Origin: a virus
Virus record (IMG/VR): IMGVR_UViG_3300045988_141012
DNA length: 64,000 bases
Strand: one strand, 5' to 3'
This document shows positions 1-61,015 of the stretch, in pieces. The translations under genes were made by a program, and so were the position numbers. Under the pieces are notes generated by a model. It saw only the letters and a list, made by a program, of their open reading frames with translations, was not told the origin of the DNA and made no database searches. Position 1 is the first letter of the stretch; each line of letters begins with the position of its first letter.

Positions 1-846
1 ACCGGCGAAATTTATACTTCTATCAATGCAGTTCTGAAAGGAATAGGATTTAAAGATAGAGATCAAATAAGAAAAAGAAGAGATAAATGGATTAATGATT
101 CTTTAATCTCAAAAGGTATAGCCAAATTCACATTACCTACACAAAAGATGGTGCCGAAAAATGACACCACCCTATTTGATGAGAAAGATACTTATTGCAT
201 TTCACAACGTAAACTCCCTATTGCATTAGCAAAAATAAACATTACACCAAAGATGAAACAAACTCAACCTGAATTAGCAACAAAATTAGAACTATATCAA
301 GACAAATGTGCAGATGTATTAGCATCTGTATTCATGGATAAGAAGTCTACGAATGATATAAACGCTGAATTCTTAGCTGAAAGTATCTCAAATGCAATAA
401 CCGTTGCATTACAACCTATAACTGAAAGATTAGAAAAGATAGAACAAACTCAAACTAATCGTTATTTATCAGCAAGAAGGTATCCATCAGCATGGTATAA
501 GAAGATTGCTCCTAAATACAAAATGCTTATGGAATACTTTGATTGCACGAGAAGTGAGTTGTATTCAAATATCTATAAAGAACTTGAAGATACATATGAC
601 GTAGATATAAATCAAATTCATGAAGATTATTGCTATGAAAATAATTTACTCAAAGATGAATGTTATCCAATGGATGCAATAGAACATCATATTCAATTAA
701 GAGATGCATTAACATTACTTATAGATAGTAGTCTGATTAAATATGGATTACAAACAGAAGAACAAATCAAAAACTTCAAAAGAAAAACATTGTTTGATAG
801 ACCAGTAATTAAACAGAGAATAACATATGTAGAAGATAAGATTTAA
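1..846 (+). CDS. phage antirepressor-like protein, C-terminal part (5' end outside window)
   Basis: Frame 1 is open from nt 1 with no stop before the track ATG at 148; stop at 844-846. The stretch ELATKLELYQDKCADVLASVF recalls ORF6C/KilAC-type antirepressor C-termini (recollection, not searched). Confidence 0.45.
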   Translation, partial: TGEIYTSINAVLKGIGFKDRDQIRKRRDKWINDSLISKGIAKFTLPTQKMVPKNDTTLFDEKDTYCISQRKLPIALAKINITPKMKQTQPELATKLELYQDKCADVLASVFMDKKSTNDINAEFLAESISNAITVALQPITERLEKIEQTQTNRYLSARRYPSAWYKKIAPKYKMLMEYFDCTRSELYSNIYKELEDTYDVDINQIHEDYCYENNLLKDECYPMDAIEHHIQLRDALTLLIDSSLIKYGLQTEEQIKNFKRKTLFDRPVIKQRITYVEDKI

Positions 847-2971: not shown

Positions 2972-3160
2972 ATGATAACAGATAGATATATACCCGATTA
3001 TTCGGAATACGCAGGAGAAATAAAATTTACAAATTGGGGAATGAAGAACGGAGACATTCACTCTCGATCTTATATTGCTGACAACATAAGATCAGATGAA
3101 AGTTTTAATAAATATTGTGAAAGGCAAACATTTAGAGTTCGTGACAACAAAAATAAATAA
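2972..3160 (+). CDS. hypothetical protein (62 aa)
   Basis: ORF from the track; only a weak, distant SD (AAAGGAAA). Confidence 0.3.
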   Translation: MITDRYIPDYSEYAGEIKFTNWGMKNGDIHSRSYIADNIRSDESFNKYCERQTFRVRDNKNK

Positions 3161-3183: not shown

Positions 3184-5796
3184 TTGGTTATAACTAAGAT
3201 TCAATACACAATGATGAAACTTCCTATAAGGGAGATTATTAAACAAGAATATGATGTTAAAATTGATAAAAACGAAGCTATGTCAAATGAATATCTTATA
3301 AAACAAGGTGATTCAATAATATTTGATCAAATAAAAAGATTACGAGGATATACTTCGTCCCATATATCCGAAATGGTATTAATTGTAGCCAAAAAGAACC
3401 CTAAAACAGAAAAAGAATTAAAGAAAATTTTAGATGAAGGGTTTTATCTTAATGGAATTCACTATAATCGTTTTGGTAAATCGGCTTCTCAAGGGAAAGA
3501 TGGAATCACAGCTTTTGTTTGTGATGAAATTTTTGAAGAGTTATATATGATTACTCAAATGGATATTCCCATTGACGAATGTGTCATTTCAAAGTATGAA
3601 GCTCAAAGATGTCTACCATTTAGTTCTTGTACTCTTATTGAAGGATATATGCCTAATATCGTGATAATTGGTGAATACGAAAAAACTCTTTCTAACCAGT
3701 TAATCAAATATGTTGTAGAAAAAAAGAAAGAGTTTACGGATAAAGCTACCGGCGAAATAAAATCTTATATTTCTCGTGAAATAGAAGAAGGTTATAGAGA
3801 TATTAATCTATCCCCCTTTGATGGATGTGGTTGTCACGAATTAGAATTTACACAAGAGATAAGTAAACAGTTGAATTTAGATTATAATGTCATAGGAACT
3901 CAAGTGAGACTACCTTTTATAAAAGGTTATTCTGTATATGTGCCATTCCGTGAAATTTTGAAAGAATGGGGATATGAGTTTATTACTGATATTTATGGTT
4001 GCAAACATAATATTGAGGATATAGATTGTATTTGGAATATTTCTATGTTCAAAGGTCACAAAATTTTTAAATCTAAATATGGTAATAATGCATGGGAGAA
4101 ATATATGCAAACAATAGCCAAATACCATTTTAAACTTGGGATAAGTAAATATAGTCATCATGTTAAACATTTAAATAAATATACTAGAATGAATTTTCAA
4201 TATCTTCAGTGTTTAGATTTGTGGAATCCTAAATATATTGAGGCTTATGAAAACAAAAATAAAAAAGAATATGATATTTTAGATGACGATAATAAAGGCA
4301 AAATTATTGAGATGGCTCAATACACTACATCTTTATTTGAGAAGATTATAAAAGGTGATAAATTTTATACATATAAATTTATGGGTGTAAACGATACTGA
4401 AAATTATGAACCCGACAGCAAGTATCTTGAGGCTGCGTTAATTAATGATGTTATGTTAAAAGATCCAGCTATCAAACAGTTCATTTACAGAAAATTAAAG
4501 AAAGCCATTGATGAGGCAAAGGTTGGGAAAATATATTGTTCAGGATTTTATCATACTGGTATCGGAGATATGATTGGATATTTACAATATGCAGTAGGAT
4601 TAACACCAGTTGGTTGTTTAAACGAAAGAGAATTTTATAGTGCTAATTTTGAACAAGGTGATTGCGTGTCATTTCGTTCTCCATTGGTAGATCCTTCTGA
4701 AGTTAATAAGATAAAAATTGTTCGTAATGATACTATCAACAAATGGTTTAGACATTTTCAAGATCAAGATGTTGTAATGTTTAATATGTATGATATTTCA
4801 GCACCTCAACAAGGCGGAGCTGACTTTGACGGAGATATTTTCTTACTATGTAATGACCCTATTATCATAAATTCTAAAATTGACAAGTTAATTATTTTAG
4901 ATATTGAAGATAAAATCACGGCAAAATCAAAGCCATATACAAAAGAGAATCTTATTGAATATGAGGTAATGACACGTGATAATCGTATAGGTGAAATTAC
5001 AAATGTTGTTACCGGAATTGAGAATAAATACACCACGAACGATGAAGTTAAGCAATTATACTCAGATTATTGTTCTTTGTTGCGAATTTTCCAAGGCAAA
5101 GAAATTGATTTCCTAAAAACTGGTTTTCGTTGGCATATGAATAAAGGTCTTCGTAAATATTTAAAACAACTTCCCTATTTTCTATTATATAATTATCCAA
5201 AAAAATTAAAAACATACTTTTCTATAGTCGAAAAGAATAAAAATAAATCACCTGATGATAAACTCCCTTTAAACGCATATCATTCCCCTTCCCCTATGAA
5301 TGAATTATGTGATTACATATGTAGTTGGGAAAAACATAATATTCTATGGGATAATTGTTTGTCAGACTTAGTTGATACTCGATGTTTAATTGTTAACAAT
5401 GATATTGATTTATCTGATAAAAAAGTAATAAAGATATGTCGTAAATACATTAATGAATATGCCGAGGCGATGCGTAGACATATGAATTTGAAAAATGAAG
5501 ATTTCGATTTAAATTCAGTTATTGATGGTTTTAAAGATAGTTTATCAAAAGAACTTGGTGTTGATGAAGAAATAATTGCAAATTATGTTATAAAAACTTC
5601 ATATAATTCTTTTTCAATTAGCAAATCGTTTGCGTGGTCTGCCTATGGAGAATATATTATTGAAAATTTGAAAAATAATACTAATCCAAAGAAAAATATC
5701 TCTATCCATGAAGTTCCATATTATACGGACGGTGCATATGAATACCTTGGTAAGTATTATGAATTTGAGGTAGGTGATTCATATTTACAGTTGTGA
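3184..5796 (+). CDS. YonO-like / RdRP-like single-subunit two-barrel RNA polymerase
   Basis: GGADFDGD at nt 4813-4836 matches the metal-binding (N)ADFDGD / DLDGD signature. FRSPLVDPSEV at nt 4672-4704, 42 aa upstream, matches the R-x-P-x-x-H-P-G-D-like first barrel motif of cellular RdRPs and YonO. Size (870 aa) is similar to SPbeta YonO. The start is uncertain (TTG 3184 or ATG 3211). Confidence 0.7.
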   Translation: MVITKIQYTMMKLPIREIIKQEYDVKIDKNEAMSNEYLIKQGDSIIFDQIKRLRGYTSSHISEMVLIVAKKNPKTEKELKKILDEGFYLNGIHYNRFGKSASQGKDGITAFVCDEIFEELYMITQMDIPIDECVISKYEAQRCLPFSSCTLIEGYMPNIVIIGEYEKTLSNQLIKYVVEKKKEFTDKATGEIKSYISREIEEGYRDINLSPFDGCGCHELEFTQEISKQLNLDYNVIGTQVRLPFIKGYSVYVPFREILKEWGYEFITDIYGCKHNIEDIDCIWNISMFKGHKIFKSKYGNNAWEKYMQTIAKYHFKLGISKYSHHVKHLNKYTRMNFQYLQCLDLWNPKYIEAYENKNKKEYDILDDDNKGKIIEMAQYTTSLFEKIIKGDKFYTYKFMGVNDTENYEPDSKYLEAALINDVMLKDPAIKQFIYRKLKKAIDEAKVGKIYCSGFYHTGIGDMIGYLQYAVGLTPVGCLNEREFYSANFEQGDCVSFRSPLVDPSEVNKIKIVRNDTINKWFRHFQDQDVVMFNMYDISAPQQGGADFDGDIFLLCNDPIIINSKIDKLIILDIEDKITAKSKPYTKENLIEYEVMTRDNRIGEITNVVTGIENKYTTNDEVKQLYSDYCSLLRIFQGKEIDFLKTGFRWHMNKGLRKYLKQLPYFLLYNYPKKLKTYFSIVEKNKNKSPDDKLPLNAYHSPSPMNELCDYICSWEKHNILWDNCLSDLVDTRCLIVNNDIDLSDKKVIKICRKYINEYAEAMRRHMNLKNEDFDLNSVIDGFKDSLSKELGVDEEIIANYVIKTSYNSFSISKSFAWSAYGEYIIENLKNNTNPKKNISIHEVPYYTDGAYEYLGKYYEFEVGDSYLQL

Positions 5797-6628
5797 TGAT
5801 ATTTACCTTTATGAAATAATTGAAGATTATAAGAGTGCTAATGTCTCTGGGAAAGATGAGATTTTCACAAATTTTTGTGATTCAATATGGCATTCAGAGA
5901 ATAAAAGGCGTACATACAAGAAACATATTACATTTTCTGTTGCTCCGAATATATTAAATACAGAGATAGGACAAGTATTTGATATATGGTCATCAGTCGA
6001 ATATCGTTATTATAAAATTATGACTAAAGATGGAAACTGGCAATCTATCATACGTCAAAAGATTAATAACCTATATACTCGATATTTTGATAAAAATGTT
6101 ATTTTATCTGAACAATATATGAACTTACTTAAGACCCCCAAAAAATTGTATTATGATTATTTACATGGAATGGATATGGATTCTTCAGAATTAACAACAA
6201 TCATTGATGATGCAATGGATGCCGCTAATAATTTAAAGATTAAATTACAAAAAGAAAAAATGTCTTTAAGTTGGGTTAAATATAAAAAAATAATTGAAGA
6301 TTTTTTAAGAAAAGCTTTTGATAATTGCAAATTAATTGAAGATTTTGAGGACAAAACAAAATTAAATAACATATATGATTTTATGACAGAAGACCACTTC
6401 TATGTAGGTTACATTAATAAAACCTTAGAAGGAGAATTGATGAAATATCAAAAAAGATATTATGGATTACCTCAGAATTCACGAAAAGGTTATATTCGAT
6501 GTAAATTATGTGGAGATATGATTGTACGCACTAACAATAAGAAAATGTATTGTGAGAAATGTGCAAATGCTAAAGAAAAATATCGAAAACGTAATAATGC
6601 ATATAAATATCGAAAAGTAGCGAAATAG
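5774..6628 (+). CDS. hypothetical protein with C-terminal zinc ribbon and basic tail
   Basis: GTG start overlaps the RNAP stop by 23 nt, after GAGGTAGG. The C-terminus reads CKLCGDM...CEKCANAKEKYRKRNNAYKYRK. Confidence 0.55.
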   Translation: MIHIYSCDDIYLYEIIEDYKSANVSGKDEIFTNFCDSIWHSENKRRTYKKHITFSVAPNILNTEIGQVFDIWSSVEYRYYKIMTKDGNWQSIIRQKINNLYTRYFDKNVILSEQYMNLLKTPKKLYYDYLHGMDMDSSELTTIIDDAMDAANNLKIKLQKEKMSLSWVKYKKIIEDFLRKAFDNCKLIEDFEDKTKLNNIYDFMTEDHFYVGYINKTLEGELMKYQKRYYGLPQNSRKGYIRCKLCGDMIVRTNNKKMYCEKCANAKEKYRKRNNAYKYRKVAK

Positions 6629-7390
6629 AAAATCCTACTTTTCCGCATGCCTAAGCCATTTGTAAGCATTTTTATGTGTGTATATATAAGATATGGGTAG
6701 CAAAGTAACTGAAAATATCGTTATGTGTCGACTTGACTATTATGTCTTGTTGACACATAACGTAAAACAATTCAACGAATGCTTTGTTATGGGCACAAAA
6801 TAACTCGGTGTAGATTGGTTAGTCACCATGCCGAGATTATATGAATGTTGAGTATTGACATAGAAGGATACTTTTATGTAGGTGCTTTTGGTATATTGTG
6901 AGATATATCAAGTAGACGGAAACTGTCAATAACAAATATAAGTGCAAAACATTATCGCAGCAAAAAGTAGATTTCAGGATGTTGATGTAATAGACGCTCA
7001 CTCGGTGAGAAGAATCTTGAGGTTTGTCAGGTGGAACTGTGCAAGATTGTAGAGAAAATCCAAATAAATCAATCGTGTCGTTGATATGCAGAAATGTGTG
7101 TATAAGTCCTGTTTATCGTCCGAGTAGCCCAAATCGACATTAAATTAAAACAAATATAATAGAAGAAATTTATAAAACAAAAATCTTTTCTGAATGACAC
7201 GGGTGAAAGATAGAGGTAATCAGCCCTCTTTATTCTTGATGTGAAAGCATTGCTATAGAAGTAATGAGGTAGCTCCTTATTGCTCAGACTATAGTAAATA
7301 ATGACTGAATATTGGTACGATGTTGTTTTTTTTGTAAGGCGAAGGTCTATTTTGTGTTCATAGTAAAGCATTTGTTGGATTGATGAATGT
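6629..7390. other. ~760-nt ORF-free, visibly G+C-richer, hairpin-dense region (candidate large structured RNA or ori-like region)
   Basis: No credible ORF on either strand. There is a 14-bp stem CGTTATGTGTCGAC (6719-6732) / GTTGACACATAACG (6749-6762) and several GNRA-type hairpins (e.g. GACGGAAACTGTC). The strand is undetermined. Confidence 0.3.
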
Positions 7391-7434: not shown

Positions 7435-7638
7435 TCAGCGAAACCGAGCTTTAAATTTTGTTCGTTTATGTTTTCCTGAAATATCTACTTTTGTAAATGA
7501 TGTTATGAGCTTACAGAAACATTTAACAATCAGATAAATAATAATTGTCACTCCAAAAAGGAATATAATTATGAAGAATAATGCTGCAATTTGTGTGGCT
7601 GAGTTAAAATTTAAAGCCACTGAAAAAAGTTCTACCAT
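7435..7638 (-). CDS. small membrane protein (67 aa, one TM helix, basic C-terminus)
   Basis: It has its own minus-strand promoter, an SD (AGGATGGGA) and a terminator. The protein contains AALFFIIIFLFGVTIIIYLIV followed by ...KHKRTKFKARFR. Confidence 0.55.
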   Translation of the reverse strand: MVELFSVALNFNSATQIAALFFIIIFLFGVTIIIYLIVKCFCKLITSFTKVDISGKHKRTKFKARFR

Positions 7639-7854: not shown

Positions 7855-7873
7855 TTTTTTATTGCAAAAATAT
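7855..7873 (+). promoter_or_regulatory. T-run + ATTGCAAAAAT motif (copy 1 of a recurrent motif)
   Basis: TTTTTTATTGCAAAAATAT; TGCAAAAAT is exact at 7863-7871, 3 nt before the tRNA-like element. Confidence 0.3.
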
Positions 7874-7947
7874 AGCAGGTTGGTGTAAAAGTAGCATATA
7901 AGACTCATTATCTTATGATAGACGTGCAATTCGTCTACCTGCCCCCA
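7874..7947 (+). tRNA. tRNA-like element, anticodon CAU (Met/Ile2-type), non-canonical D and T loops, encoded CCA
   Basis: Hand-folded cloverleaf. Acceptor 7875-7880/7937-7942 (6 bp plus an A.C mismatch) and U8. D stem is 4 bp with 2 G.U. Anticodon stem TAAGA/TCTTA with loop CTCATTA. T stem AGACG/CGTCT with loop TGCAATT. Discriminator C then CCA (7945-7947). It lacks G18G19, and T-loop position 55 is G. Confidence 0.35.
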
Positions 7948-8027: not shown

Positions 8028-8231
8028 AAGGCAATTAAACCCGTTTCCAAAGAAGAATTAAATATCCTCATTAAAAATGGCATTATCGTCAGAAGTTCAA
8101 ATGGTTATATTGACACTGAAACACATTTTGTTGTAGGGCATTACAGAACAAAAGGCGGTGCTGGTCGTGTATATATCGAGGATATGTATGCCGATAAGGC
8201 TAAAAAATTATATTTGAAAGGACTAATTTGA
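8028..8231 (+). CDS. start-less 67-codon ORF (KPVSKEELNILIKNGIIVRSSNGYIDTETHFVVGHYRTKGGAGRVYIEDMYADKAKKLYLKGLI)
   Basis: Protein-like composition and a stop 1 nt before the next gene's ATG. There is no in-frame ATG/GTG/TTG near the 5' end; only ATT at 8034, 2 nt after GAAAGG. Confidence 0.3.
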   Translation, partial: KAIKPVSKEELNILIKNGIIVRSSNGYIDTETHFVVGHYRTKGGAGRVYIEDMYADKAKKLYLKGLI

Positions 8232-8232
8232 T

Positions 8233-8421
8233 ATGGCAAAGATAACAAAGGCGATTTCTCTAAAGAATGCGGAAATCAACATGGAAGATATGACAATCAC
8301 TGAAACAACAAAAGATGATATAAAAGTATATTCATTGGATAAGTTGTTGGCGGACTGGAATCATATAAGTGGTATTTCTCTTACCATTAAGCAGGACGAT
8401 GAGATTCCTGCTAACGAGTAA
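8233..8421 (+). CDS. hypothetical protein (62 aa)
   Basis: ATG lies 12 nt after GAAAGGA; ORF from the track. Confidence 0.5.
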   Translation: MAKITKAISLKNAEINMEDMTITETTKDDIKVYSLDKLLADWNHISGISLTIKQDDEIPANE

Positions 8422-8432
8422 TCGTAAGGGCG

Positions 8433-9620
8433 GTGGACGTTATTAAATTTGAACGACTTCAAGATGAAACAGATGAAGAACTAATTTATAGAATATGTTC
8501 ACAAAAAGATATTATTGGTACTTGGTCTGACGTAGCGTCGATTATTAATCGGTTGACAGGAAATGATTTTGGAGAAAGTACATACCGTAAGAAATTTCAA
8601 TCATTTCAGAAGATGCTGAATGCTAATCAAAGTAAGTTTAGTGAGTCAAGTGAGCAACTTAAAGAGATTGAGTTGCAAAAGCGTGAGTTGGAACGTGAGA
8701 AGATAAAATTTAGAGATGAACGAAATGCTTGGCAAAAGCAAAATTATATTGATGCCCGTGTGGAACAAAAGTTAGACTTGTTGGAAGAACAATTGCTTTC
8801 GCAAGGTAAAGTGAATTTTAAAAAGCATGGTGATGTAAATATATCCTCTAATAACGACATACTTGTAATTCTTAGTGATTTCCACATTGGACAAACCTTT
8901 TCTTCTCCTTGGGGCAATTATAATTCTGATATTGCTAAGGGAAGATTAAGTCAGTTATTAAGCGAGATTATAGAAATACGTCAGTTATACAATTCTGAAA
9001 ACTGTTTCATTTCGTTGCAAGGTGATATGTTGAGTGGAAATATTCATAAAACAATTCAAGTCACTAATAGAGAAAACGTTATTCAGCAAATTAAAATTGC
9101 CAGTGAATTGATTTCTTCTTTTTGTTATGAATTGAGTAAACATTTTGCGGAAGTTTATATGTCAAGTGTTGTAGGCAACCACTCAAGAATTGACAAAAAA
9201 GAAGAAGCGTTGCACGATGAAAGATTGGATGACTTGATTACTTGGGGTGTGAATTTATCCTTGAAACATATAGTAAATTTTCATATATTAAATAATAATT
9301 TCGACAACGGTATTTCTTCGATGGAGATTCGAGGTAAAGATTATATTAATGTGCATGGCGATATGGACGCATATAGTAAGAATGGTGTTTCTAACTTATG
9401 CATGTATCTTGGATATATTCCATATGCAATTACGTATGGACATCTTCATACTTGTGCAGTAGACGAAACAAATGGAATAAAAATGATTCGTGGAGGTAGT
9501 CTTGCAGGAAGTGGAGATTCATATACGATTGAGAAACGATTGTCGGGAAAGGCATCACAGATGGTATGTGTATGTAATAAAAATGGAGTAGTTTGTTACT
9601 ACCCTATTGAGTTAAATTAA
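8433..9620 (+). CDS. calcineurin-like metallophosphoesterase (SbcD/Mre11-type motifs) with N-terminal coiled-coil region
   Basis: Ordered motifs: SDFHIG (DxH), LQGDMLSGN (GD), VVGNHSRID (GNH), NVHGDMD (H) and YGHLHT (GHxH). GTG start after AAGGGCGG. Confidence 0.75.
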   Translation: MDVIKFERLQDETDEELIYRICSQKDIIGTWSDVASIINRLTGNDFGESTYRKKFQSFQKMLNANQSKFSESSEQLKEIELQKRELEREKIKFRDERNAWQKQNYIDARVEQKLDLLEEQLLSQGKVNFKKHGDVNISSNNDILVILSDFHIGQTFSSPWGNYNSDIAKGRLSQLLSEIIEIRQLYNSENCFISLQGDMLSGNIHKTIQVTNRENVIQQIKIASELISSFCYELSKHFAEVYMSSVVGNHSRIDKKEEALHDERLDDLITWGVNLSLKHIVNFHILNNNFDNGISSMEIRGKDYINVHGDMDAYSKNGVSNLCMYLGYIPYAITYGHLHTCAVDETNGIKMIRGGSLAGSGDSYTIEKRLSGKASQMVCVCNKNGVVCYYPIELN

Positions 9621-9656: not shown

Positions 9657-9932
9657 ATGAAAAAGAATGATATTATTGCAGTATATGCAGAAAAGAACAA
9701 TGTAACAAAGAAGGCGGCAACAGAAGTTGTTGGTTCAGTTATTGATATTATAAAGGACGGCATTTTGACAGAGGGTGTTGTTGATATTACTGGTTTTGTA
9801 AAGTTTACAAAGGTACATAGAGAAGCAAGAACAGGTAAAAACCCTCGTACAGGTGAAGCTATTGCTATATCAGCAAAGTATGCACCAAAGGCAGAATTCA
9901 AGAAAGCATTTAAAGATCAAATCAACGAATAA
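9657..9932 (+). CDS. hup: HU/IHF-family DNA-binding protein
   Basis: 91 aa. [13 protein letters not shown]...TKKAATEVV...FGKF-like [33 protein letters not shown]-like arm, typical of HU. Confidence 0.85.
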   Translation: [91 protein letters not shown]

Positions 9933-10518: not shown

Positions 10519-10533
10519 ACTATATGACTTGTG

Positions 10534-10565
10534 AGAGTGTGTGAGAAATTGCACACTCTTTTTCT
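10534..10565 (+). terminator. intrinsic terminator
   Basis: AGAGTGTG (10534-10541) pairs with CACACTCT (10552-10559), followed by TTTTTCT. Confidence 0.65.
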
Positions 10566-10741: not shown

Positions 10742-10930
10742 TTGGAAAGTTTTAAAATAAAAGAAATTATTTTAAGAAATGAAAATGGTCAAGTTGTAAC
10801 AAATAGTATTGAGGTTGCTAAGAATTTTGGGTGGCTTAATCTAGGTGTGTACGTAGAATTTGCCTATGTACACATTTTCTTTTATATTAATGGGAATTTA
10901 TTTATAATATTATTCCAAGCAATACTATAA
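10742..10930 (+). pseudogene. Rha/antirepressor-like N-terminal fragment (only ~30 aa recognisable)
   Basis: ENGQVVTNSIEVAKNFG resembles the Rha-family N-terminus. Similarity ends near nt 10831, and the rest is low-complexity read-through overlapping the convergent gene. Confidence 0.3.
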
Positions 10931-11330: not shown

Positions 11331-11414
11331 AACTTTGTCCCCCATTTCTTTGTTTTATTATATCATGAAAGTTTATTTTTAACAAGTTTTGTTGTATGAA
11401 AGGAAGTGATTTTT

Positions 11415-12368
11415 ATGGCAGAACGTGCAAAACGTATACAAATGTATGATGAAAACAAATTTCAAAACATAAATCCCGAAACTCTAAAATTATTTCAAAA
11501 ATATCAGATAGATATGTCTATCCGTGATTTATCTAAAAATACAATTGATGCTTATAATGCAGATTTGAAACAATGGTTTATTTTTATGTACGACCATCAG
11601 TTTAACTTATCTGTTTTAGAGGCAACCGAGGATGATATTACAGAGTATTATTATTGGAGAAAGCAACAAGGTAATAATGTAAATCGGCAAAAGAGGGTTA
11701 TGGCTTCGATTTCGGCATTCTATAAATTTCTTCGAAAAAAGAAACTTATAAGAGAATCGCCGACTGAGTTTATAGATAGACCTAAAGCTGGACAACCCAT
11801 TACAGTGCAAACATATCTTACAAAGGAACAAGTGCAATTAATGAGAGAAAAACTTGAAGAATATGGTGATATTCAATTACAAGCATATGCCTTTCTTTCG
11901 TTAACCACTATGGCACGGGTAAATGCTGTTGCCAATTTAAAATGGAAACAAGTTAATTTAGAAGAGAGAATTTGCACTGACGTTATTGAAAAAGAAGGTA
12001 AAATTGTAGAATTGAGTTTTTCAGTTGAAACAAAAAATTATCTTGAGAATCTGATTCAATATCGCAAGGATAATAATATTGACGACCATGGATGGTTGTT
12101 CATTACACCTTATGTCACCGAAGATAAACCAATACGAAATAGCACGTTGAATGATTGGTGTAAAAAGATTGGTGCGATGATTGACGTTCCTACTCTACAT
12201 GCCCACGATTTCAGGCACAACTACGCCACGCTACTCAAGAACGCCGGCGTAAATTTGGAAGACATTTCCACTATGTTGAATCATGCTGGAACGGATGTAA
12301 CTAAAAAGTTTTACATAAAAACTGACACTACTAAGGTTAGAAAATTAAAAGATAGTATTCAGATTTAA
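11415..12368 (+). CDS. int: tyrosine recombinase / integrase (XerC/D-like)
   Basis: SAM-like N-domain, then a catalytic region with ARVNAV (R), HDFRHNYAT (HxxR) and TKKFY (Y). ATG lies 8 nt after AGGAAG. Confidence 0.85.
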   Translation: MAERAKRIQMYDENKFQNINPETLKLFQKYQIDMSIRDLSKNTIDAYNADLKQWFIFMYDHQFNLSVLEATEDDITEYYYWRKQQGNNVNRQKRVMASISAFYKFLRKKKLIRESPTEFIDRPKAGQPITVQTYLTKEQVQLMREKLEEYGDIQLQAYAFLSLTTMARVNAVANLKWKQVNLEERICTDVIEKEGKIVELSFSVETKNYLENLIQYRKDNNIDDHGWLFITPYVTEDKPIRNSTLNDWCKKIGAMIDVPTLHAHDFRHNYATLLKNAGVNLEDISTMLNHAGTDVTKKFYIKTDTTKVRKLKDSIQI

Positions 12369-50602: not shown

Positions 50603-50635
50603 ACAGTTGCGTTATATTACGTAGCTGTTTTTTTA
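50603..50635 (+). terminator. intrinsic terminator
   Basis: ACAGTTGCGT-TATATT-ACGTAGCTGT (2 G.U) followed by T7. Confidence 0.6.
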
Positions 50636-50647
50636 TTGCAAAAATTT
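50629..50647 (+). promoter_or_regulatory. T-run + ATTGCAAAAAT (motif copy)
   Basis: TGCAAAAAT is exact at 50637-50645, 2 nt before the SD AAGGAGGTG. Confidence 0.3.
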
Positions 50648-60999: not shown

Positions 61000-61015
61000 T
61001 TTTTGCAAAAATATA
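61000..61015 (+). promoter_or_regulatory. TTTTTGCAAAAATATA (motif copy)
   Basis: TGCAAAAAT is exact at 61004-61012, upstream of the SD of 61039. Confidence 0.3.

Follow-up and report, generated by a model that had tools for sequence, protein, structure and literature searches.

The stretch of viral DNA analyzed here, called the window throughout (IMG/VR record IMGVR_UViG_3300045988_141012; 64,000 nucleotides, G+C content about 31%, genes almost all on the + strand), encodes near its beginning a large protein with the motifs of an RNA polymerase and, on a gene overlapping the end of the first, a smaller zinc-ribbon protein. The question raised by this locus is what kind of polymerase is encoded and what the second protein, referred to here as the partner, does beside it. 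Judged from its sequence, the large protein is a clear homolog of YonO and a YonO-type two-barrel RNA polymerase, a member of an already known family, and the reading favored here, with a probability of roughly 0.6, is that the pair represents a late polymerase of the YonO type together with a translationally coupled accessory subunit, the latter most likely engaged in promoter recognition or initiation. YonO of the Bacillus subtilis prophage SPbeta is a single-peptide, two-barrel DNA-dependent RNA polymerase, and the study that characterized it left undecided what its promoter is and whether it needs further factors (Forrest et al. 2017, PMC5467207). In the literature searched, no paper describes the structure or the promoter of YonO, or the partner family reported here. 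The features that carry the argument are given below, where A2 denotes the polymerase alignment, YonO included, and A3 a diverse alignment of 59 partner sequences reaching down to 21% identity.

3184-5796, + strand: coding sequence of a two-barrel RNA polymerase of the YonO type, in a single chain (870 amino acids, TTG start; Pfam, PHROG, BLASTP and PDB profile matches)
3820-3924, + strand: active-site residues of the beta-like barrel, D213 (in FDGCG), R242 and K247 (in QVRLPFIKG), invariant in A2 and placed by the RDR2 and QDE-1 alignment
4672-4836, + strand: active-site residues of the beta-prime-like barrel, R498-x-P500 (in FRSP) and D547/D549/D551 (in GGADFDGD), invariant in A2
5680-5793, + strand: cysteine-less C-terminal tail of the polymerase (..ISIHEVPYYTDGAYEYLGKYYEFEVGDSYLQL), at the position of the YonO zinc ribbon (A2 alignment; weak hhalign match, E = 0.03)
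5774-5796, + strand: 23-nucleotide overlap of the two genes, with a GAGG ribosome-binding site and the GTG start of the partner inside the polymerase coding sequence
5774-6628, + strand: partner gene (284 amino acids, GTG start), predicted to encode an N-terminal domain that is mostly helical (residues 1-235), followed by a zinc ribbon and a C-terminal helix that is basic
6500-6562, + strand: zinc ribbon of the partner, C243-x2-C246-x13-C260-x2-C263, its cysteines invariant or nearly so in A3
6563-6625, + strand: basic C-terminal helix of the partner (21 residues, net charge +8), homologous to the YonO tail

The polymerase gene begins with a TTG codon, as does yonO, and a ribosome-binding site, AAAGGTGA, lies 4 nucleotides 5' of this start. 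The protein matches the Pfam family RdRP (PF05183) at E = 1.5e-16 and 60.6 bits, against a gathering cut-off of 23.8 bits, over profile positions 51-580 of 582, and its homologs in the protein database also have a precomputed PF05183 match; phrog_8308 is matched at 2e-62. BLASTP aligned residues 46-832 with residues 95-792 of SPbeta YonO (E = 1e-19, 24% identity, about 90% of the length), placing FRSP on LRSP and DFDGD on DNDGD. When 50,697 deposited phage genomes were searched by tblastn, 39 records were matched, all at less than 60% identity, the best being the Thomasclavelia phages TR-TP1 and TR-TP2 (27.6%, labeled "RNA-dependent RNA polymerase"); next came Enterocloster phages, Clostridium phage c-st and the SPbeta group. 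In addition, a profile built from nine sequences of the polymerase family matched the solved structures of two eukaryotic RNA-dependent RNA polymerases (RdRPs), RDR2 of Arabidopsis (7EU0) and QDE-1 of Neurospora (2J7N), at E of about 1e-3.

The superfamily to which these enzymes belong is defined by eight invariant residues, which in QDE-1 are D709, R738, K743, R962, P964, D1007, D1009 and D1011 (Ruprich-Robert and Thuriaux, PMC2919709). All eight are present in the window polymerase, as D213, R242, K247, R498, P500, D547, D549 and D551, and all are invariant throughout A2. In the alignment with RDR2, the beta-like barrel falls on "DGIG ... QIRYGGYKG" and FRSP/GGADFDGD on KNP ... DLDGD. The D-29-R-5-K spacing of the beta-like barrel, D709/R738/K743 in QDE-1, and the spacing of 2 within R-x-P are the same in the two proteins, whereas the step from R-x-P to the aspartate triad of the beta-prime-like barrel is 47 in the window and 43 in QDE-1; both eukaryotic enzymes have R-x-P about 45 residues before DxDGD. 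The likeness to QDE-1 and RDR2 is confined to this bipartite catalytic core, in which two double-psi beta-barrels are predicted from the sequence. The first-pass annotation of this DNA, made from the letters alone, had proposed a YonO/RdRP-like two-barrel phage polymerase, and the Pfam and BLASTP matches, the RDR2 and QDE-1 profile matches and the eight residues all bear this out. The protein length of 870 residues and the position it gave for GGADFDGD (residues 544-551, nucleotides 4813-4836) are exact. It also named FRSPLVDPSEV (residues 497-507, nucleotides 4672-4704), which is present, but placed the two motifs 42 residues apart, and this figure does not hold; 36 residues lie between them, the starts are 47 residues apart, and R498 is 49 residues from D547. 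The slip has no effect on the interpretation of the polymerase.

By family match, by the eight residues and by homology to YonO along its length, the protein thus belongs with YonO. It is not a YonO in the strict sense, however, since it ends in a cysteine-less ..YEYLGKYYEFEVGDSYLQL and has no CxxC...CxxC and basic tail of its own; the zinc-ribbon module is found on the next gene, not at the polymerase C-terminus, and the locus is therefore a split variant. DNA-templated, processive RNA synthesis and a role in late transcription may be ascribed to the window enzyme by analogy with YonO. As a separate observation, the polymerase gene is interrupted in several relatives (L064, L055, L060, L061, L117, L124, L125, L075 and phage c-st, L008), and at the break in L064 a group I intron is recognized (RF00028, 50.7 bits, positions 2551-2854).

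The overlap of 23 nucleotides between the two genes, noticed already in the first pass, is real. The stop codon of the polymerase (5794-5796) lies inside the partner open reading frame (ORF), whose frame is +1 with respect to that of the polymerase. Because of this frame, and because the fused form exists in SPbeta, a programmed +1 frameshift within the overlap, joining the ORFs into a YonO-like chain ending in the zinc ribbon, has to be considered. We regard it as extremely improbable and have rejected it: an in-frame TAG closes the partner frame immediately 5' of the GTG, no known slippery or shift-prone site is found in the overlap, and the junctions of relatives vary in both length and frame, several of them having a ribosome-binding site and an ATG for the partner. 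The 23-nucleotide overlap itself is repeated in dozens of related loci of the closest groups, and other relatives show an overlap or a gap that commonly measures between a few and some tens of nucleotides, in various frames, many with their own ribosome-binding site. Such usually short but variable junctions, often with a ribosome-binding site, fit translational coupling and argue against a conserved frameshift, and translation of the partner is probably coupled to that of the polymerase.

The pairing of the two genes is highly conserved. Among loci whose polymerase is at least 45-53% identical to that of the window, the gene directly after the polymerase is the partner at 51 of the 55 genome loci and at 59 of the 61 IMG/VR loci, the six exceptions being cut by a contig end or interrupted, and the pairing persists where the partners are only 28-38% identical to the window partner. 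The great majority of these homologous loci belong to genomes of Lachnospiraceae or to gut metagenomes, and IMG/VR contigs of 92-144 kb encode polymerases 97-99% identical to the one in the window.

A total of 1282 homologs of the partner were collected at E<=1e-3, forming 176 clusters at 50% identity, and almost all are free-standing proteins of 260-345 amino acids. Because they keep the four cysteines, the zinc-ribbon partner is not a product of chance, and because conservation begins at residue 4, the GTG start is supported. The net charge is +6 in the ribbon and +8 over the 21 residues of the tail, whereas the polymerase is acidic overall, so that contact of this basic module with nucleic acid is plausible. 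The zinc ribbon and basic tail described in the first pass are thus confirmed, with the additions that the pairing is conserved and that ribbon and tail correspond to a module fused at the C-terminus of YonO.

An AlphaFold2 model of the partner built from A3 had a predicted local distance difference test score (pLDDT) of 94.7 and a predicted template modeling score (pTM) of 0.88; a model from A1, a shallow alignment of close homologs, reached a pLDDT of only 54.6 and was unusable. In the confident A3 model, about 235 residues form a domain that is mostly helical and has one beta-hairpin pair; the zinc ribbon, with a beta-hairpin at residues 240-251, comes next, and a long basic helix follows it. 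Foldseek searches with this model gave no match at E<=0.001 in PDB or BFVD (best E, 0.78 and 0.72, respectively), and a sigma-A chain was matched only at E of about 3-5. Nor did sequence searches give it a name: no Pfam family was matched at E<=0.01, with only marginal zinc-ribbon matches from members of A3; no NCBIfam or PADLOC family was matched; PDB sequence-profile searches with A1 and with A4, the alignment of a second family introduced below, gave no match; and no protein of the partner type was found by tblastn in the 50,697 deposited phage genomes. One PHROG of unknown function was matched at E = 0.006. The partner family is real and unannotated, and its N-terminal domain, as modeled, seems to be novel with respect to solved and viral structures.

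It is the partner's C-terminal portion that ties it to the polymerase. The A3 profile matches residues 785-838 of YonO and the C-terminus of the polymerase of Psychrobacillus phage Perkons, and a profile restricted to the ribbon and helix matches YonO at E = 1.6e-9 among 15,665 six-frame segments; over six-frame translations of 1.63 Mb the restricted profile gave 128 matches, all on the polymerase strand. Several partners, which end in (K/Q)KRITTNR, share a C-terminal tail motif with YonO almost word for word. By these matches, the ribbon and basic helix of the partner are homologous to the C-terminal 45 or so residues of YonO, fused to the polymerase in SPbeta and split from it here. Loci with the fused state are those of SPbeta and Perkons, one from Streptomyces and one from Bacillus rugosus. 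Where the partner is separate, in contrast, the polymerase ends in a cysteine-less "EYLGKYY" tail at the position of the YonO ribbon or stops just before it, and the fused ribbon and the "EYLGKYY" tail are mutually exclusive across the surveyed loci. When the partner was compared with the polymerase family by hhalign, only the ribbon was aligned with the polymerase tail, and only weakly.

Three other phages, Bacillus phage BUCT082 (genus Spbetavirus), Clostridium phage c-st and Enterocloster phage PMBT24, also have the ribbon on the gene that follows the polymerase, and in these the downstream proteins have the N-terminal domain of a second family, A4. Between A3 and A4, hhalign recovers the ribbon plus helix only (97% probability, E = 9.5e-11, 52 columns), and no relationship of the N-terminal domains was detectable by this method. 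The annotation of c-st already labels CST177 "YonO homolog (C-ter only)". A module present either in the polymerase chain or on a co-translated neighbor is a classic signature of physical and functional association, and from it we infer that the partner would bind the polymerase.

A zinc ribbon with a basic helix is also a common DNA-binding arrangement, and weak winged-helix matches occur in a few A4-type members (Cdc6_C, 1.3e-4; DnaD_N, 0.004). The partner could on these grounds be a DNA-binding regulator in its own right, such as a switch for the host polymerase or for phage early genes, merely co-transcribed with the polymerase and no part of the enzyme. We consider this unlikely and less likely than an accessory subunit, since the same module is covalently part of the polymerase at the SPbeta, Perkons, Streptomyces and B. 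rugosus loci, and strict adjacency, usually with a short overlap, is maintained down to 28% identity of the partners.

The position of the pair in the genome points to the task of the enzyme. The + strand holds 42 of the 44 ORFs of at least 150 amino acids, including those for terminase, portal and tape measure, and 3' of the polymerase and partner the following features are recognized.

6780-7367, + strand: ROOL RNA (Rfam RF03087, 355 bits, full length)
7874-7947, + strand: tRNA-Met (CAT), detected by ARAGORN
8233-8421, + strand: yonK-like gene (BLASTP to YonK, 7e-9)
8433-9620, + strand: yonJ-like exonuclease gene (BLASTP to YonJ, 9e-28)
9657-9932, + strand: gene for an HU-like DNA-binding protein, counterpart of yonN (phrog_379 at 1.6e-21)

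The homologs of yonK, yonJ and the HU gene are followed by about 55 kb of co-oriented virion genes, and the genes for a tyrosine recombinase, the large terminase, the portal, the tape measure and the tail all lie on the + strand, so that the polymerase heads a late morphogenesis block running from yonK onwards in the layout of the SPbeta late region. The YonO-dependent late operon of SPbeta begins upstream of yonK (PMC5467207). An HU gene next to the polymerase is also a feature of five other loci, those of SPbeta, TR-TP1, PMBT24, Perkons and BUCT082. The recombinase (integrase) gene lies at 11406-12368 (+), between the HU-like and terminase genes and co-oriented with them, and an integrase occupies the corresponding place of the late block in some relatives (L004-L006).

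The ROOL RNA begins 152 nucleotides after the partner stop codon, and the covariance model is matched over positions 1-574 of 574 with a score far above the gathering threshold of 99.1. ROOL is known from phages, where it is found near tRNA islands; it forms nanocages, and its function is not known (PMC12286853). It was present at the same place in all 11 of the near-identical IMG/VR contigs examined (polymerase 97-99% identical), and absent both from the examined relatives whose polymerases share about 66-77% identity with that of the window and from the loci of SPbeta, TR-TP1 and PMBT24. Some ROOL-less loci have tRNAs or a gene of 204 amino acids in the ROOL slot, and in several relatives one or more tRNAs lie downstream of the partner gene. 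ROOL was thus rejected as a general companion of the gene pair, being restricted to the lineage of the window itself. In SPbeta the gene-free 1.7 kb between yonN and yonK (L002 7760-9442), which corresponds positionally to the ROOL/tRNA slot of the window, holds an RNA motif of Rfam, DUF3800-VIII (L002 9120-9185), and BUCT082 has a similar gap of about 1.7 kb with one small annotated minus-strand ORF only. On the analogy of the SPbeta late start upstream of yonK and of a non-coding RNA, ROOL may be transcribed by the window polymerase, and may be the first product of the late unit.

The presence of a large structured RNA 1 kb downstream could also be taken, together with the fact that the best Pfam, PDB and PHROG matches are to eukaryotic-type RdRPs, as a sign that the enzyme is what the Pfam name and GenBank labels say, an RNA-dependent RNA polymerase that copies or amplifies RNA such as the adjacent ROOL. 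This is less likely than the DNA-dependent alternative, and indeed very unlikely. QDE-1 and RDR2 copy RNA for gene silencing, but the phage branch depends on DNA: YonO, the one close relative that has been characterized, is a DNA-dependent enzyme that serves the late genes (PMC5467207). Gene order is conserved with respect to the SPbeta late region, and ROOL is missing from relatives with a 75% identical polymerase that keep the gene pair.

The sequence TTGCAAAAAT, which the first-pass annotation had singled out as a recurrent promoter-like motif, did not withstand examination and was rejected as a promoter of the polymerase. It has four exact copies in the window without enrichment (20 matches to an extended 13-mer at <=2 mismatches, versus 15.6 expected) and is absent from 75 related loci. 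In two of the copies the sequence continues to TTATTGCAAAAAT, directly after the T-runs of terminators (7859-7871 and 50633-50645, +); a further site is at 61003. A non-coding block of about 110 nucleotides directly 5' of the yonK homolog (window about 8130-8232, +) is nearly identical among the relatives L004, L005, L006 and L018 and partly conserved in the window (e.g., GC..GGCT..TCGT..ATA and ATATGTA). It is a candidate late promoter or leader, by analogy with the YonO start site of SPbeta, which lies 5' of yonK.

The co-oriented block is also mildly enriched in terminator-like hairpins, which on the coding strand are about twice as frequent as in shuffled sequence (7 vs 2.1 between 2.2 and 10 kb; 14 vs 6.4 between 10 and 30 kb). 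The first-pass suggestion that the enzyme may be related to read-through of such terminators is weaker than its main inference. Strong examples include 10533-10560 and 10843-10877 (+). This excess bears on the main rival to a role in initiation, namely that the partner is an elongation, anti-termination or RNA-handling factor whose basic helix and ribbon grip nascent RNA or DNA and keep the polymerase processive over the 55-kb late block and its hairpins. In its favor, the ribbon and tail are strongly basic, YonO has neither the flap nor the lid element with which cellular polymerases act at hairpins (PMC5467207), and the evidence from linkage and fusion applies to it equally. Nevertheless, YonO alone is already highly processive in vitro (PMC5467207), and a fast-evolving, lineage-specific N-terminal domain, not detectably related between A3 and A4, fits sequence-specific recognition better than a generic clamp. 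We therefore hold an elongation role to be rather doubtful, though it is the strongest of the alternatives.

The favored reading, that of a late polymerase with an accessory subunit for initiation, may be put together as follows. The phage would be an SPbeta-like siphovirus or prophage of Lachnospiraceae. After infection or induction, the host RNA polymerase would make the window polymerase, by analogy with YonO, and this enzyme would transcribe the co-oriented late block from about 8.2 kb to beyond 60 kb, that is, the yonK-like, yonJ-like, HU, terminase, portal, tape measure and tail genes. Initiation would probably take place within the 1.6 kb of non-coding DNA where the ROOL RNA and tRNA-Met lie. 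The partner would be a dissociable subunit of the polymerase, its ribbon and basic helix contacting nucleic acid at or near the enzyme, and its lineage-specific, fast-evolving N-terminal domain would provide a phage-specific function, most likely promoter recognition or initiation. The suggestion of the first-pass annotation that the partner is a specificity or DNA-binding factor is compatible with this scheme, but is a hypothesis from sequence and unproven.

Several observations weigh against such a role. The N-terminal domain of the partner does not resemble a sigma factor (sigma-70 or sigma-54), TFIIB/TFB or any other initiation factor in Pfam, NCBIfam or Foldseek searches, and the comparison of relatives gave no conserved promoter motif, only the block of about 110 nucleotides. 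Fourteen of the 18 most distant IMG/VR loci have no zinc-ribbon gene, and a TR-TP1-like clade keeps the polymerase tail and a downstream gene whose product has no cysteines, so that the module must be dispensable in some lineages. Moreover, purified YonO is processive as a single chain (PMC5467207), and catalysis itself thus needs no partner.

Three further features of the window lie outside this argument. One of the few minus-strand ORFs of the region (7435-7638, -) encodes a protein of 67 amino acids, very hydrophobic and basic in its tail, and a terminator-like hairpin of its own belongs to it (7427-7409, -); its product could be type I toxin-like or a small membrane protein, and in SPbeta yonT/SR6 lies near yonO. 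An anti-repressor-like protein with a P22_AR_N domain (phrog_524) is encoded at 148-846 (+), upstream of the polymerase region. The ORF at 2972-3160 was considered as an upstream counterpart of yonP and rejected, as it has no similarity to YonP.

To our knowledge, YonO is the only characterized single-chain relative of the cellular RNA polymerases. The window polymerase resembles it over nearly the whole chain and in the same catalytic motifs, and likewise heads a block of yonK, yonJ, HU and virion genes. It differs in that YonO itself ends in the zinc ribbon and basic tail, which here belong to a separate, overlapping protein of 284 amino acids with an extra domain of 235 residues, and in that the host is a member of the Lachnospiraceae, not Bacillus. 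The nearest deposited phage genes are the "RNA-dependent RNA polymerase" genes of TR-TP1/TP2, PMBT24 and c-st (CST179/178/177), with 23-28% identity. These loci share the order of polymerase, a gene of about 210-280 amino acids, then HU and exonuclease genes, and in PMBT24 and c-st the downstream gene has a zinc ribbon like that of the window; unlike the window partner, however, their downstream proteins belong to the A4 family of N-terminal domains or, in TR-TP1 gp4, are without cysteines. For the proposed role, an analogy can be drawn with phiKZ gp68 and AR9 gp226, the specificity subunits of phage multisubunit non-virion polymerases, which have no similarity to sigma factors and are needed, along with a non-canonical two-barrel polymerase, for promoter-specific initiation. 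No sequence or fold similarity to these subunits was found for the partner, and the phiKZ and AR9 enzymes are split beta/beta-prime homologs, not RdRP-like single chains.

The polymerase, then, is an ordinary member of a Pfam-recognized family abundant in phages of gut Lachnospiraceae, and what is new is the split arrangement with a dedicated zinc-ribbon partner. A bolder and tentative proposal would be that the YonO-type "single-subunit" polymerases are in fact two-component enzymes, in which the ribbon and helix anchor a specificity subunit that in most lineages is free-standing, with a fast-evolving recognition domain, and in SPbeta has shrunk to a fused stub, and that the ROOL nanocage RNA is the first late product in the present phage. 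If this were true, ROOL expression would be linked to a phage-encoded polymerase. The pattern of fused and split forms in any case names a candidate helper for YonO, one that is coupled to the polymerase, is almost always present in its clade and has a conserved end that also forms part of YonO. Prophages of this kind with the gene pair are found in strains that can be cultured, among them [Clostridium] asparagiforme DSM 15981, Enterocloster lavalensis KCTC 15153, Clostridium sp. chh4-2 and strain 1xD42-87. The partner may thus provide a testable lead on how YonO finds its promoter and whether it needs a helper, the points left open for this enzyme (PMC5467207).

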